Source: a virus. Taken from it: a DNA stretch of 5,453 bases. Below are positions 1,954 through 5,453 of the stretch, one piece after another (positions within the stretch are counted from its first letter, which is position 1; each line of letters begins with the position of its first letter). The stretch lies in IMG/VR virus record IMGVR_UViG_3300045988_005327. One strand, given 5' to 3'. The notes beneath the pieces were generated by a model, which was not told the origin of the DNA, made no database searches, and worked only from the letters and a program-made list of their open reading frames with translations. A program made the position numbers and the translations under genes.

Positions 1954-3630
1954 TTAGTGATGATCGACGAGTCCCGGAATACTGTACATGGGCATCGGTC
2001 TGACGCTGGTGTTGTCGATGATTGTGTCCATGATAAATTGCGGTTCGTTGTCTACTGCTAAAGTACGCTGAATCTCGGAGTCTCCTTCTTTCATCCATGC
2101 TTGACTCAGGTTTGGTACACTGGTGTAGTTGTCGCCATAGTGCCAACTGTCCAAAGTTCCGGTTGCGTTACTCCTGAATTTTCCGCTGATGCGATTTGGT
2201 TTCATTCTGTATTCTGCCCAAGCTTCCTGATAGCCAAATGCCTGCTCATCCGTTGCGGTGCCGGTCAGATAGATTTCCTTTTTTAGGATTGCTTGTTCTC
2301 CTAAGTTTGCAAAGACAGGATAGTAGAAGTCGAGATTTGTTTTACGGCTCCACATTTTTTCGAGTCCTTGCTGGTAGGTATGATCATGTCGGATGCAACA
2401 TACGCCGATAACATAGCCGTGTTCTTCGAAACTCTTTGTAAACATGTTGCCGTTGTACGGCGTTACGGATACTGCCGCCGTGTTGCCCTGCGGACTTTCG
2501 GTGGTTGTGCCGCTGGTCTGGATAACTTGATTCATGTTGATGGTGATACGTGTACCGCCCAGATACTCTGGGATTTGTACCGTTTTGTCGCTGATTTTGG
2601 TGTGAAACAGCGAATAGATCATCTCACGGTAACGACTGCCGCCGCGTGCAAGCTCTTCATAGTATTTTTGAACTTGGAAAGCCTGTCTCAGTTGGTTAAT
2701 CGTTGCTCCTTCTATGGAGGTTAAGTCTGCACCAAGGTAGGCTGTTTTGTCCCCTGAGTTCTGATAGATGCCTGTTCCATACGGTACGATTGTGCTTCCG
2801 GGCTTTATTCCCCCTGTGGTTCCCGTCCAGTTGACATATTTGTCTTCACTGACTGTTTTCAAGGTTTCTTCTTTGTACGGAAGGATTCTTGCATTTCCAG
2901 TCAGCGGAATTGTAATAGTTTCTGCTGACTTCTGAGGCGATGGCAACGCTGACGTAAAGTAGTCATGGAATTTGTTTACTGGTAATGGCCTTGAGCCTCT
3001 GAATGCGTTTTTTAGGATATATTCGATGTCCGGTTTGTTTCCGTCCATCCCGAATTCCGGATTGTCGTAGTACGAATGTGTCACGTCTCCGTCTTCGGTG
3101 ATCGCTGGATTGTCTACGTTTTGGTCTCTGAACCATTCTTGCCAAATCATTACGTATGCTCTGATTGGCAGTGCGTTTATTGTAAACGCTGTTTCTTTGT
3201 TTTTGCATACCTTGGTTGGTATGCCCATATAGTCCAATATACTTCCTTCAAAAGGTTCTGCTACAGGTCCTTCTGATGTTTTTTCGATTTTTATTTGCGG
3301 AATTGTGTATTCTTGCTTTTGTGTCCACGGCCCAGTGTCGTTTTCTCCCATAAACCGTTTCCAGTTTTTCCAGAGGATTCGGTTTGGTGCGAAGAAATAA
3401 TAGATGTCCATATAACAATTGTCCATTACGGGGAAGATTGGCGTTGTCATACGGATAATTGCGGCCTGATCGATTGAAAAGGTGTCTCCTGGTAAGACCT
3501 CATCTACGTAGAATGGTATGAGCTGTCCTGCGTTGAGTGTGAGCTTGACGTCTTGTCTCCGCTTGAACCGACTTCGTGTGATGTCCAGTCTTGGGACTTG
3601 GTTGAATCCTGCGTCTTTGTTTCTGTTCAT
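1954..3630 (-). CDS. VP1: VP1 major capsid protein (Microviridae F-protein family)
   Basis: 558-aa ORF. The N-terminal region (FNQVPRLDITRSRF...LNAGQLIPFYVDEVLPGDTF...TTPIFPVMDNCYMDIYYFFAPNRILWKNWKRFMGEN) matches the conserved gokushovirus VP1 pattern. SD GGAGG lies 7 nt upstream. The start overlaps the VP3 stop as ATGA. Confidence 0.95.
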   Translation of the reverse strand: MNRNKDAGFNQVPRLDITRSRFKRRQDVKLTLNAGQLIPFYVDEVLPGDTFSIDQAAIIRMTTPIFPVMDNCYMDIYYFFAPNRILWKNWKRFMGENDTGPWTQKQEYTIPQIKIEKTSEGPVAEPFEGSILDYMGIPTKVCKNKETAFTINALPIRAYVMIWQEWFRDQNVDNPAITEDGDVTHSYYDNPEFGMDGNKPDIEYILKNAFRGSRPLPVNKFHDYFTSALPSPQKSAETITIPLTGNARILPYKEETLKTVSEDKYVNWTGTTGGIKPGSTIVPYGTGIYQNSGDKTAYLGADLTSIEGATINQLRQAFQVQKYYEELARGGSRYREMIYSLFHTKISDKTVQIPEYLGGTRITINMNQVIQTSGTTTESPQGNTAAVSVTPYNGNMFTKSFEEHGYVIGVCCIRHDHTYQQGLEKMWSRKTNLDFYYPVFANLGEQAILKKEIYLTGTATDEQAFGYQEAWAEYRMKPNRISGKFRSNATGTLDSWHYGDNYTSVPNLSQAWMKEGDSEIQRTLAVDNEPQFIMDTIIDNTSVRPMPMYSIPGLVDHH

Positions 3631-4124
3631 TCTTTGGCCTCCGTTGCTTCGGTTGCTTCGGTTGCTTTCGTCGTCTCAGTTTTGTTTTCTGTGTAGATTC
3701 CCAGATTCTTTGCCCATTCGATTGTGCCATACGATGCAACAAACTTATCGACATCGTTGTCAAATTTGAGCTTGATGTCTTTTGGCACTTCTTCCCAGAT
3801 CTGTTCTGCTCTCAGCATGATGTTCTGGAGTTCTGCCAGCGTCTGCGGTGCTTCGGTAAAGTCTTGGATGCCGCCGCCGATGTCCGGCTGGATACGTGCT
3901 GCAATGTTTGGGTCGATGCTTGCTCGCCGAATGATGTTTTCCAGTTTGGTTTCCTCAAGATAGGAGTCGATTTCTGCTTGCTGATCAATGGTCTGGTCGA
4001 GTCTTAGCACCTTTTCGCCTTTTTCGTTGCGTTCCCAGAGGTATGTGCGCCTTACGCTTTCTCCGGCCTCGGTCGGTTTTGCCGTTGCTGTCTCCCTGAA
4101 GTTACTTACAGAGCGAAATGCCAT
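3627..4124 (-). CDS. VP3: VP3 internal scaffolding protein
   Basis: 165-aa acidic ORF directly upstream of VP1. The core DFTEAPQTLAELQNIMLRAEQIWEEVPKDIKLKFDNDVDKFVAS resembles the conserved gokushovirus VP3 scaffold core. SD AAGGAG lies upstream. The C-terminal tail is a TEA repeat. Confidence 0.82.
   Translation of the reverse strand: MAFRSVSNFRETATAKPTEAGESVRRTYLWERNEKGEKVLRLDQTIDQQAEIDSYLEETKLENIIRRASIDPNIAARIQPDIGGGIQDFTEAPQTLAELQNIMLRAEQIWEEVPKDIKLKFDNDVDKFVASYGTIEWAKNLGIYTENKTETTKATEATEATEAKE
3643..3669. repeat. About 3 copies of a 9-nt tandem repeat (GTTGCTTCG) inside the VP3 3' end
   Basis: 3643-3651 and 3652-3660 are identical; 3661-3669 (GTTGCTTTC) is a degenerate third copy. On the coding strand it is in frame and encodes ATEATEATEA. 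Confidence 0.9.
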
Positions 4125-4341
4125 CGTAAATGTTCTCCTTTGCCTCTTCGAAGTTGCCGTCGCGTTCGTCGAATTTTGCGAGTCTTACCAACCTGTAGTC
4201 GCTTGGCGTCTTGCTCATGATGTTGTTTTCGTCCATTAGTGCGATTTTGAAGTTTCGCTCGGCCACCTTGTCGTCTCGCTCACTAAAGGTGGTTACATAG
4301 CTCATTGCACACTGATCATAGATGCCGTATACGTTGATCAC
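4102..4341 (-). CDS. VP5: VP5-like small non-structural protein (gokushovirus ORF5 family), GTG start
   Basis: 79-aa ORF. The pattern VYGIYDQCAMSYVTTF...DKVAERNF...PSDYRLVRLAKFDERDGNF resembles my recollection of the Chlamydia-phage/gokushovirus ORF5 signature (V.D.K...F..PFF....A.R.F.......P.D..L...G.FD...G.F). SD GAGGAGG lies 9 nt upstream of the GTG at 4341-4339. The 3' end overlaps the VP3 start by 23 nt. Confidence 0.65.
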   Translation of the reverse strand: MINVYGIYDQCAMSYVTTFSERDDKVAERNFKIALMDENNIMSKTPSDYRLVRLAKFDERDGNFEEAKENIYDGISLCK

Positions 4342-4684: not shown

Positions 4685-4791
4685 TCGGGCTTGTTGCCCT
4701 CTACTGCGTGGTAAATTTTGTCCAACATGGACAAGATTTTGCGGATGTTGTTAAACAGCGCGTTAATTTCCTTGAGAGTCAGAGCAAACAC
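4678..4791 (-). CDS. Possible short leader ORF (34-37 codons) with a non-canonical start
   Basis: The frame is open from the TAG at 4797-4795 to the TAA at 4680-4678 and reads (V)FALTLKEINALFNNIRKILSMLDKIYHAVEGNKPEE. A strong SD AGGAGG lies at 4796-4791. The only start-like codons are GTG (4791-4789, fused to the SD) and CTG (4782-4780, 8-nt spacer). The first ATG (4728-4726) has no SD. Confidence 0.3.
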   Translation of the reverse strand: MFALTLKEINALFNNIRKILSMLDKIYHAVEGNKPEE

Positions 4792-4858
4792 CTCCTAAAA
4801 ATTATTTTGTATAAATGGTTTTGCAAAAATAGCACTTTTGTGCTGTTTAACTATTTTC

Positions 4859-4887
4859 TTTATACCAAAAAAAATAGGATTCGTCAA
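4859..4887 (-). promoter_or_regulatory. Sigma70-type promoter driving the minus-strand gene block
   Basis: The minus strand reads TTGACG (4887-4882), then a 17-nt spacer, then TATAAA (4864-4859). A TG lies one base upstream of the -10 hexamer (TGGTATAAA, extended -10). It sits about 60 nt upstream of the first SD. Confidence 0.65.
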
Positions 4888-5029
4888 GAGGTTTTTGACA
4901 CTTTTTATTTGAGGTCATGCGCTAGGCGCGGTGTGCCGTACGAAGAGCATGACGTGACTTTCTGGTTTCGCTCGTCGGACGGCTTTTAATTTCGTTTTCC
5001 ACAGTTTCAACAGGTTTTCCACAAAATGT

Positions 5030-5049
5030 TGCACAAAGGTTTTTGTGCA
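5030..5049. other. Hairpin-forming inverted repeat TGCACAAA-ggtt-TTTGTGCA inside the iteron array
   Basis: 5030-5037 is the reverse complement of 5042-5049, giving an 8-bp stem and a 4-nt loop. The left arm overlaps the DnaA-box-like 9-mer TGTTGCACA. Confidence 0.8.
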
Positions 5050-5071
5050 TATTGCTACACTTTCAACATTT

Positions 5072-5081
5072 CAACAAGTTA
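5072..5081 (+). repeat. Copy 1 of the exact 10-mer CAACAAGTTA (TAACTTGTTG on the coding strand)
   Basis: Identical to 5181-5190. It bridges an iteron and the perfect DnaA box. Confidence 0.9.
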
Positions 5082-5087
5082 TCCACA
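5079..5087 (+). promoter_or_regulatory. Perfect consensus DnaA box TTATCCACA
   Basis: Exact match to the bacterial DnaA-box 9-mer consensus. Two one-mismatch copies (TTTTCCACA) lie at 4995-5003 and 5015-5023 in the same orientation. Confidence 0.6.
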
Positions 5088-5180
5088 AAAGTATCAACAT
5101 TAAAATTAGCTAAAAAATATCGTTCCAAGGATAAAAATTCATAGTATTTAACATTTTAACACTCCCTACTACTACGACTA

Positions 5181-5190
5181 CAACAAGTTA
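5181..5190 (+). repeat. Copy 2 of the exact 10-mer CAACAAGTTA, followed by a very AT-rich tract
   Basis: Identical to 5072-5081. The context is CAACAAGTTAATAATAAAAATGATAATAAT. Confidence 0.9.
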
Positions 5191-5212
5191 ATAATAAAAA
5201 TGATAATAATAT

Positions 5213-5252
5213 CATGCGCGTGTGCGCGCGATTACGTGTGCGCGCGTGCATG
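5213..5252. repeat. Two 18-nt perfectly alternating pyrimidine-purine GC-rich blocks around an ATTA centre, containing a 12-nt direct repeat
   Basis: The blocks are CATGCGCGTGTGCGCGCG (5213-5230) and CGTGTGCGCGCGTGCATG (5235-5252). CGTGTGCGCGCG occurs at 5219-5230 and 5235-5246. The blocks are imperfectly inverse-complementary: 13 Watson-Crick pairs, and the 5 exceptions are all G-T. Confidence 0.9.
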
Positions 5253-5257
5253 TCATT

Positions 5258-5309
5258 ATAAAATAAAATACTCAGCCAAGTACCTTACTTGATAGTTACT
5301 TGGCTGAGT
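5258..5309 (-). terminator. Rho-independent terminator downstream of VP4 (across the circular junction)
   Basis: A perfect 13-bp stem pairs ACTCAGCCAAGTA (5270-5282) with 5297-5309 around a 14-nt loop. On the minus strand it is followed by ATTTTATTTTAT. The stem begins 12 nt after the VP4 stop, counting across the 1/5312 join. Confidence 0.8.
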
Positions 5310-5312
5310 GAC

Positions 5313-5453
5313 ACCAAAGTGTCAAAATAATCCTTTGGCTTTGCTCATCTTCTTAGACATGGACGCTTCTTTGTCTTTTAACTGTTCTGCGTATGGTTTA
5401 TCGGTTTCCGCGTTTCTTTCGATTAAGGACGCTATAGCTTTTTCTTGTCGATA
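5313..5453. repeat. Terminal redundancy (right copy); repeats the 3' end of VP4 (5322-5453) and is not a second gene
   Basis: Exact copy of 1-141. Confidence 0.97.

Follow-up and report, generated by a model that had tools for sequence, protein, structure and literature searches.

Microviruses are textbook rolling-circle replicators, which use Rep together with a host helicase and PriA- or DnaG-type priming. The complementary-strand origins of such single-stranded DNA (ssDNA) phages, namely the PriA assembly site of phiX174, the DnaG hairpin of G4 and the origins of the filamentous phages, are strand-specific structures of ssDNA. Mobile replicons such as P1 oriR, pSC101, R6K and RK2 carry one to five DnaA boxes that assist an iteron-binding initiator encoded by the element itself, and the A site of R6K and pBR322 is a box within an ssDNA hairpin. 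We know of none of these plasmid and phage replicons that has been described with a complete module of boxes, spacer, DnaA-trios and AT-rich tract. A module of this kind, the basal unwinding system (BUS), has been defined in the incC region of Bacillus subtilis (Richardson 2016/2019; Pelliciari 2021, PMC8287927). It comprises a DnaA box that departs from the consensus of the species at two positions at most and lies 0-16 bp from the first trio, an adjacent tandem box (up to four mismatches), and, downstream of the box, at least three trios of the form 3'-NAN-5' (consensus 3'-GAT-5') on the strand opposite TTATCCACA; the spacer is about 4 bp long and usually GC-rich, with a modal distance of 13 bp from the upstream box. 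In the B. subtilis unwinding scaffold, ACTTATCCACAAATCCACAGGCCC followed by TACTATTACTTCTACTA, the spacer is the 4-nt GGCC and boxes 6 and 7 are offset by 8 nt, while a distal DnaA box of incC acts at a distance with helical phasing, probably via a loop. Here we describe a comparable cassette in a 5453-nt stretch of viral DNA (IMG/VR record IMGVR_UViG_3300045988_005327; hereafter the window), which consists of a 5312-nt circle plus 141 nt of terminal redundancy. The genome is that of a gokushovirus, its nearest GenBank relatives being human, monkey and pig gut gokushoviruses with about 81% nucleotide identity.

The cassette (4995-5215, about 212 bp) lies between the 3' end of rep and the first promoter. 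Its sequence suggests, with a probability that we place at roughly 0.6, that it is a DnaA-dependent origin of the bacterial-chromosome type, for origin opening and helicase loading on the double-stranded replicative form (RF). Its parts are listed below in window coordinates.

4995-5035, + strand: distal DnaA-box cluster A, four boxes
4995-5003, + strand: cluster A box TTTTCCACA
5004-5012, + strand: cluster A box GTTTCAACA, that is (G)TTTCAACA
5015-5023, + strand: cluster A box TTTTCCACA, second copy
5027-5035, + strand: cluster A box TGTTGCACA
5030-5049, no strand: palindrome TGCACAAA-GGTT-TTTGTGCA between clusters A and B, conserved in position and not in sequence
5060-5099, + strand: DnaA-box cluster B, four boxes at -106, -98, -87 and -75 from the trios
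5060-5068, + strand: cluster B box CTTTCAACA, that is (C)TTTCAACA
5068-5076, + strand: cluster B box ATTTCAACA, that is (A)TTTCAACA
5079-5087, + strand: cluster B perfect DnaA box TTATCCACA
5091-5099, + strand: cluster B box GTATCAACA
5100-5144, no strand: spacer between cluster B and the proximal boxes, about 45 nt, constant in length and variable in sequence
5145-5161, + strand: trio-proximal tandem boxes TATTTAACA (5145-5153) and ATTTTAACA, that is (A)TTTTAACA (5153-5161), at an 8-nt offset
5162-5165, + strand: 4-nt spacer CTCC, from proximal box to first trio
5166-5187, - strand: DnaA-trios CTACTACTACGACTAC..., in full CTACTACTACGACTACAACAAG; the + strand reads CTA CTA CTA CGA CTA CAA CAA G
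5188-5215, no strand: AT-rich DNA-unwinding element TTAATAATAAAAATGATAATAATATCAT, the weakest duplex of the genome

Judged by their sequence the repeats are DnaA boxes. A preliminary description of this stretch had reported an iteron array with a perfect DnaA box inside it, and all of the copies it listed are present on the + strand; altogether there are ten same-strand boxes of the TTWTCMACA type, and no inverted copy was found in the window genome. The enrichment that it implied is also borne out, since the window has eight matches to TWTCMACA where 0.93 would be expected, a count reached by no shuffle out of 200 (dinucleotide shuffling); seven of the eight matches lie within 4996-5099, all on the same strand. 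Taken alone, TTATCCACA with at most one mismatch is less striking (five matches against 1.0 expected, reached in 3 of 200 shuffles). Other parts of that description hold in modified form. The array is indeed regular and close, but strict spacing at 10.5 is not observed, successive starts being 8-12 nt apart in three clusters. Boxes do extend to 5161, where the array had been closed, but the putative functional unit runs on to about 5215 through the trios and the AT tract. Two copies described as degenerate are degenerate here (C to T at box position 5), but had been overlooked as a tandem pair ahead of the trios. Each of these proximal 9-mers, TATTTAACA and ATTTTAACA, has four mismatches to TTATCCACA, two to the relaxed consensus TTWTNCACA and two to the clade consensus TTTTCAACA.

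The trios are on the - strand, which reads 3'-GAT-5', the DnaA-trio consensus, three times plus one and so contains the minimum of three trios found in a BUS. On the + strand the same region contains two overlapping TnnT motifs, TnnT being the core of what DnaD recognises in B. subtilis. The adjoining tract (5186-5215) has the lowest duplex stability in the genome, ranking first of 5312 with windows of 20 nt and of 30 nt alike. Nearly all of the relatives shown likewise have an AT-rich tract after their trios. The sequence CAACAAGTTA is found twice, at 5072-5081 inside cluster B and at 5181-5190 at the trio end, and both copies are strongly conserved across relatives. Within the 45-nt spacer there is a small imperfect palindrome, ATATCGTTCCAAGGATA, with clade-specific counterparts in relatives (ACGCTTTAGCGTTAAA or AAACGTAGTAACGTT), which may be the site of an architectural or regulatory protein.

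The cassette therefore has the tandem box, the strand and number of trios, the 4-nt spacer and the AT tract of a BUS, with the end of the upstream box 12 nt from the first trio. Box orientation, the 8-nt tandem offset and the CTA-type trios on the same strand are as in B. subtilis. Both also have more boxes on that strand, in distal clusters that keep a set distance of 60-170 bp upstream of the trios, and this constancy in the phage would be in keeping, by analogy, with the action at a distance of the incC box. It differs in that the phage unit resides in a 5.3-kb ssDNA phage beside a rolling-circle rep rather than beside dnaA or dnaN, and in that its boxes are mostly TTTTCAACA, its spacer is less GC-rich, its distal 'trios' are a fixed CTACAACAAG and the cassette is invertible. 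Since oriC proper is chromosomal, typically lies beside dnaA or dnaN and is where chromosome replication starts, the cassette is not oriC proper, and from its sequence it would work like an oriC module. The oriC2 region of Clostridioides difficile is also close: its trio, CACCTACTACTATTACTACTATGA, is almost identical to that of the phage, and it too has several boxes directly upstream and an unwinding element downstream. Both oriC1 and oriC2 are reported to be needed for unwinding in vitro in that species (PMC7561715), whereas the phage has a single compact 220-bp unit.

When the cassette-derived pattern TCMACNNNTCMACNNNNNCTACTACTA was searched for in bacterial genomes, at least 120 matches were obtained, against an estimated 17 or so by chance. 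Among the matches listed, 58 of 120 have a DnaA C-terminal signature 170-520 nt upstream on the same strand, the position of a dnaA-dnaN origin, and nearly all read ...TTATCCACATATCCACAGnCCCTACTACTA... followed by AT-rich DNA. The string CCCTACTACTACGACTAC, present in three bacterial origins (L159, L176 and L242), is almost identical to the trio string of the window. A profile of the phage cassettes aligns with bacterial origins over about 190 nt (best match L205, E = 4e-15), a result that is not fully independent because the loci were preselected with 27 nt of the pattern. Same-strand CAACA-type boxes are most numerous in five origins, which come from three Ruminococcus metagenome-assembled genomes (MAGs), Owariibacterium (Oscillospiraceae) and an uncultured Clostridia MAG, with MAG titles being suggestive only as evidence for a host. 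Phage cassettes average 7.1 CAACA-type and 1.4 CCACA-type boxes, and this box flavour, mostly TTTTCAACA, makes Oscillospiraceae or Ruminococcus the likely hosts.

An alignment of the intergenic regions of relatives shows that the array is conserved at fixed spacing, as the preliminary description would lead one to expect. A scan for the trio string located the cassette in at least 116 microvirus-sized IMG/VR contigs, most of them from one large dataset (3300045988), and it is present in 43 GenBank records, all of gut Microviridae (gokushoviruses). In all 43 the region is unannotated or marked only for similarity to hypothetical proteins, and never as a replication element. With more than 150 independent circular genomes carrying it, the cassette cannot be put down to a chimeric assembly or to host DNA captured in one contig. 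Carriers are 40-79% identical to the window in VP1 and 33-96% in Rep. Across 118 genomes, forward boxes occur at -180 to -148 (in a pile-up spanning -185 to -140), at -106/-98/-87/-75 and at -21/-13 relative to the trios, and a genome averages 8.8 boxes in forward and 0.7 in reverse orientation. In 100 of 113 genomes the anchor of cluster B shifts by no more than 1 nt, with intervening spacer sequences that differ. Of the tandem proximal boxes, one begins at -21 in 104 of the 118 genomes and the other at -13 in 84 and at -12 in another 15; the spacer from box to trio is 4 nt in 90, with varying sequence. At the same positions relatives have TTTTCAACT/TTTTCCACA or TATTCAACA/ATTTCAACA, and a stronger version of proximal boxes and trios is seen in TTTTCAACTTTTCCACATTGC followed by CTACTACTAC....

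Relatives chosen by VP1 alone gave a similar picture, 56 of 65 having array plus trios. The array-negative ones include three contigs broken inside the array and three others that are distant (VP1 40-50% identical). The broken contigs (L250, L252 and L258) are linear IMG/VR contigs of close relatives with ends inside the box array; repeated boxes thus appear to break short-read assemblies, so that the cassette is probably under-counted in metagenomes.

The orientation of the cassette is not constant. It is as in the window in 89 genomes and inverted relative to the genes in 28 of 117. When L013 and L009 are compared, both in coding orientation, the flanks align plus/plus, and a 212-nt centre extending from the first box as far as the AT tract aligns plus/minus. 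A (CG/CA)n tract, GC hairpins and the motif GGTGTCAC with its hairpin keep their orientation to the genes despite the inversion. In genomes with the order VP4-VP1-VP2, the cassette is found between VP2 and Rep. Inversion fits an element that acts at the level of the duplex. What the analysis establishes directly is the anatomy of the cassette, how it matches the origin modules of bacteria, that it is conserved and that it does not depend on orientation.

A second lineage (IMG/VR contigs L311, L312, L327 and L331; 4.65-4.79 kb), with VP1 about 36% and Rep about 29% identical, has its own BUS-type cassette directly after rep, with four perfect TTATCCACA boxes. Here tandem TTTCCACA boxes are followed by an ATGC spacer and by CTA repeated five to six times; the module reads TTTCCACATTTCCACA-ATGC-CTACTACTAC..., or also CTACTACTACTACTAC, and is followed by an AT tract. 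Canonical TTATCCACATATCCACAGnnnCTACTACTAC modules were additionally observed in about 20 larger IMG/VR contigs of 10-275 kb, many of them GC-rich (among them L305, L307, L310, L314-L316, L318, L319, L321-L325, L328 and L332). No DnaA gene signature was found within the fetched stretch of these contigs, which may represent origin-opening modules widespread in dsDNA phages or phage-plasmids, or else host fragments. Four further large IMG/VR contigs that matched the trio pattern (L025, L035, L078 and L081) were set aside as apparent chance matches, in repetitive sequence with no adjoining boxes.

If the cassette is such an origin, host DnaA would bind the distal clusters A and B and the proximal tandem boxes at 5145-5161, and ATP-DnaA would oligomerise from the proximal pair across the 4-nt spacer onto the - strand trios (5166-5187). 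The adjacent AT tract (5188-5215) would then melt, and the opened strands could recruit host helicase-loading and primosome proteins (DnaD/DnaB/DnaI-DnaC in Firmicutes). RF synthesis might in this way start without a nick by the phage Rep, giving theta-type amplification or maintenance; alternatively, the RF might use the cassette to load a primosome for complementary-strand synthesis during rolling-circle replication. We infer DnaA binding, unwinding, helicase loading and a benefit to the phage from sequence, and the benefit is the least certain step, for which Rep-independent initiation on RF is favoured. Gokushoviruses have been reported to persist as circular episomes without integration, and an integrated relative, the prophage described below, has no cassette. 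A more speculative extension, which we regard as possible and somewhat doubtful, is that these phages have two replication modes, rolling-circle replication and that of a DnaA-controlled theta mini-chromosome timed by the host initiator, allowing plasmid-like carriage (pseudolysogeny) in Oscillospiraceae without integration.

Several observations weigh against a DnaA-dependent origin. The whole case is built on sequence, and we know of no rolling-circle phage that needs DnaA. In the window, a box within the two mismatches of the BUS definition is obtained only with the relaxed or the clade-specific consensus; across the 118 genomes, the best proximal box has two or fewer strict mismatches in 62. 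The box-trio spacer is lower in GC content and more variable than in bacteria, and the central A required on the bound strand is present in only three or four of the seven triplets. The distal CTACAACAAG is more strongly conserved than typical trios, which, with the recurrence of CAACAAGTTA in cluster B, hints at an additional constraint beyond trios. One dataset (3300045988) dominates the IMG/VR carriers, yet the cassette also occurs in more than 12 other datasets and in GenBank records from six host species. Finally, some gokushoviruses have no cassette, so it is not essential to the family, and an integrated Pusillibacter prophage is among these cassette-free members.

That prophage (L303; VP1 44% identical) lies at 233-238 kb in an Oscillospiraceae isolate, Pusillibacter faecalis pMM59_01, beside xerC; a distant gokushovirus in this family agrees with the likely hosts suggested by box flavour. 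The box/trio cassette was not found in it, and at its end the coding strand has a hairpin followed by GTGACACC, in an orientation opposite to that in the window.

Other explanations have to account for the same conserved parts. The main rival, in our view unlikely, is a DnaA sink or sensor with no replication start at the cassette: an origin mimic on multicopy RF would soak up ATP-DnaA, and perhaps DnaD, and thereby block or delay host initiation or couple phage behaviour to the initiation potential of the host. By titrating DnaA, cloned regions with DnaA boxes from B. subtilis show incompatibility with the chromosome, there are some 9-10 boxes per phage genome that match the flavour of host origins, and DnaA-box clusters have non-origin roles in other phages, for example as the proposed injection-stop signal of T5. 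For such a sink the boxes alone would suffice, yet the length of the 4-nt spacer, the trios and the AT tract with the weakest duplex are conserved too, and these features recur in an independent lineage, which points to selection for unwinding. The trios and AT tract would be equally superfluous if array-bound DnaA, which is a transcription factor in bacteria, repressed or activated one or more intergenic phage promoters. A near-consensus promoter does lie about 110 nt from cluster A (4887 to 4859, - strand), but inversion changes the end of the cassette that faces it, and the VP4-VP1-VP2 group has its cassette between VP2 and Rep, which together make transcriptional control distinctly improbable.

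The other two rivals concern what might bind the boxes and on which form of the DNA. Direct, one-sided repeats near a rep gene could be iterons bound by VP4, the phage Rep, of the sort known from CRESS-DNA viruses (geminivirus type) and iteron plasmids, in which the iteron sequence co-varies with its Rep and the iterons have a set arrangement around the nick-site hairpin; the preliminary description had named Rep binding sites as an alternative. This idea is hard to sustain and we give it hardly any credence, because the boxes stay the same across the whole range of Rep identities (33-96%, and 29% in the second lineage), their sequence is that of the universal DnaA box, and bacterial chromosomes without any such Rep show arrays of the same architecture. 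Moreover, the distance and orientation of the boxes to the conserved hairpin change on inversion, and a more promising Rep site is GGTGTCAC with its hairpin, which always points the same way on the coding strand. A binder that is constant as Rep diverges, and a universal DnaA consensus in an unrelated lineage, indicate a host protein rather than Rep; host DnaA is likely to be the protein that binds the boxes. The preliminary description itself had favoured a complementary-strand origin on the packaged ssDNA, in which a box in a hairpin stem recruits DnaA-DnaB-DnaC and primase in the manner of the R6K A site. The 8-bp hairpin on which it drew is real (arms 5030-5037/5042-5049) and overlaps the near-consensus box TGTTGCACA, and in window-type genomes the coding strand has trios in the polarity bound by DnaA; only six of the nine box nucleotides are paired, however, and the window offers no inverted box copies. 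In other clades the hairpin is absent or replaced, by a different palindrome (CGTCAT..ATGACG) at the equivalent of 5030-5049, and GTTGCACAA is kept without a window-type hairpin, so that this palindrome may instead be a site for an accessory protein. As ssDNA the array is no more structured than shuffled sequence on either strand (z = +0.14 and -0.30), and the arrangement of box, spacer, trio and AT tract is one defined for double-stranded origins. The packaged strand is the coding strand in characterised Microviridae; if that applies here, packaged strands differ between genomes in which strand of the cassette they bear, since 24% of genomes have it flipped relative to the genes. The lack of ssDNA structure and the inversion both speak against an R6K-like ssDNA origin, and an ABC primosome assembled on the packaged strand is very improbable.

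A DnaA-dependent unwinding origin on RF is thus the reading that we carry forward, and it sets the cassette apart from other ways in which phages and plasmids recruit host replication proteins. Like the phiX174, G4 and filamentous-phage origins, the cassette is a non-coding cis element by which an ssDNA phage would do so, but it is unstructured as ssDNA and is found in either orientation. With P1 oriR, pSC101, R6K and RK2 it shares the exploitation of host DnaA by a mobile replicon, and it differs from them in being a complete box-spacer-trio-AT module. In phage T5, the injection-stop region has eight paired DnaA boxes that have been likened to oriC, with a proposed role in injection arrest (bioRxiv 10.1101/866236). 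There too a conserved, precisely arranged set of DnaA boxes lies in a non-coding phage region; T5, however, is a dsDNA phage, its boxes form inverted repeats, neither trios nor an unwinding element have been described for it, and the role is not in replication.

A candidate Rep site lies at 5270-5315. On the coding strand of the window, and of L009-L128, GGTGTCAC is followed by a hairpin of 13-16 bp whose stem varies and whose loop is conserved as CTATCAAGTAAG, or as ATAGACAAGGAAG in another group. The hairpin folds far better than shuffled sequences (z about -7) and is always on the coding strand beside the stop or start of rep, whichever way the cassette is oriented. It is likely to be either the Rep nick site or a terminator. 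In the complement of the hairpin (loop 5285-5296) there is a CTTGATA, which is the nick motif of phiX and pC194 but here lies antisense to the genes. The sequence AACTTG, on the coding strand beside the trios, was also considered as a Rep nick site, and the inversion of the cassette argues against it.

The remaining features of the window are the genes and the flanks of the cassette; all of the real genes are on the - strand.

10-1029, - strand: Rep/VP4
1030-1908, - strand: pilot protein VP2
1954-3630, - strand: major capsid protein VP1
3627-4124, - strand: scaffold protein VP3
4102-4341, - strand: VP5
up to 4791, - strand: small open reading frames (ORFs)
4887 to 4859, - strand: near-consensus promoter TTGACG-17 nt-TATAAA, read by eye, facing the first small ORFs
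4914-4953, no strand: conserved GC-rich nested hairpin (GTCATGCGCTAGGCGCGG...GCATGAC), flank on the cluster-A side
5213-5252, no strand: GC-rich alternating pyrimidine-purine tract (CG/TG)n, an imperfect palindrome, flank on the AT-tract side

The unusually long non-coding region of the preliminary description is confirmed, in that 4792-5312 has no ORF matching a PHROG family and relatives keep motif islands there rather than reading frames. Seven small ORFs of this region gave nothing below E = 0.07 against PHROG, and an Rfam scan of 4700-5453 with E up to 1 returned sub-threshold noise only. The promoter has a TG one base upstream of its second hexamer and was missed by the automatic promoter scan, whose rule demands a T at position 6 of that hexamer. 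The 5213-5252 tract contains the direct repeat GTGTGCGCGCG and, on the + strand but not on the other, folds into an 18-bp hairpin that includes G-T pairs (-18.1 against -11.6 kcal/mol); it has the potential for Z-DNA or a cruciform, is present in most, not all, relatives and, as a flank outside the invertible unit, delimits the cassette on one side. Both borders share the 8-mer TCATGCGC, in the 4914-4953 hairpin and at 5212-5219, and the inversion in L013, L062 and L096 might have come about through these short, palindromic, GC-rich borders. A nucleotide search of PLSDB with the whole window genome found no match, and hence no sign of the phage having been deposited as a plasmid; a protein search of PLSDB found distant prophages only.

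The kind of module described here, a DnaA box/trio origin, is already known; what is new is its setting, as a compact, invertible and conserved unit in ssDNA phages that replicate by rolling circle. Full-text literature searches of limited coverage brought up no publication connecting DnaA to gokushoviruses or Microviridae, and the cassette has apparently never been described before in gut microviruses. As an invertible cassette it is a minimal bacterial unwinding module tested by evolution, to which established oligonucleotide strand-separation assays are directly applicable, and its box flavour provides a sequence-based clue to the hosts of uncultured microviruses. The roughly 212-bp cassette may serve as a portable origin and, if the two-mode reading is true, as a minimal origin for vectors in gut Clostridia that are hard to engineer. 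The reported persistence of gokushoviruses as episomes could have its mechanism here, and on that same reading plasmid-like carriage would be an alternative to the XerCD/dif lysogeny of other gokushoviruses. Also on the two-mode reading, the capture of origin-opening modules would be a general phage strategy, given the BUS-like modules of the second lineage and of some 20 larger viral contigs. If the cassette is indeed a DnaA-dependent origin, a large group of the most abundant ssDNA phages of the human and animal gut would also use the chromosome initiator of their hosts.

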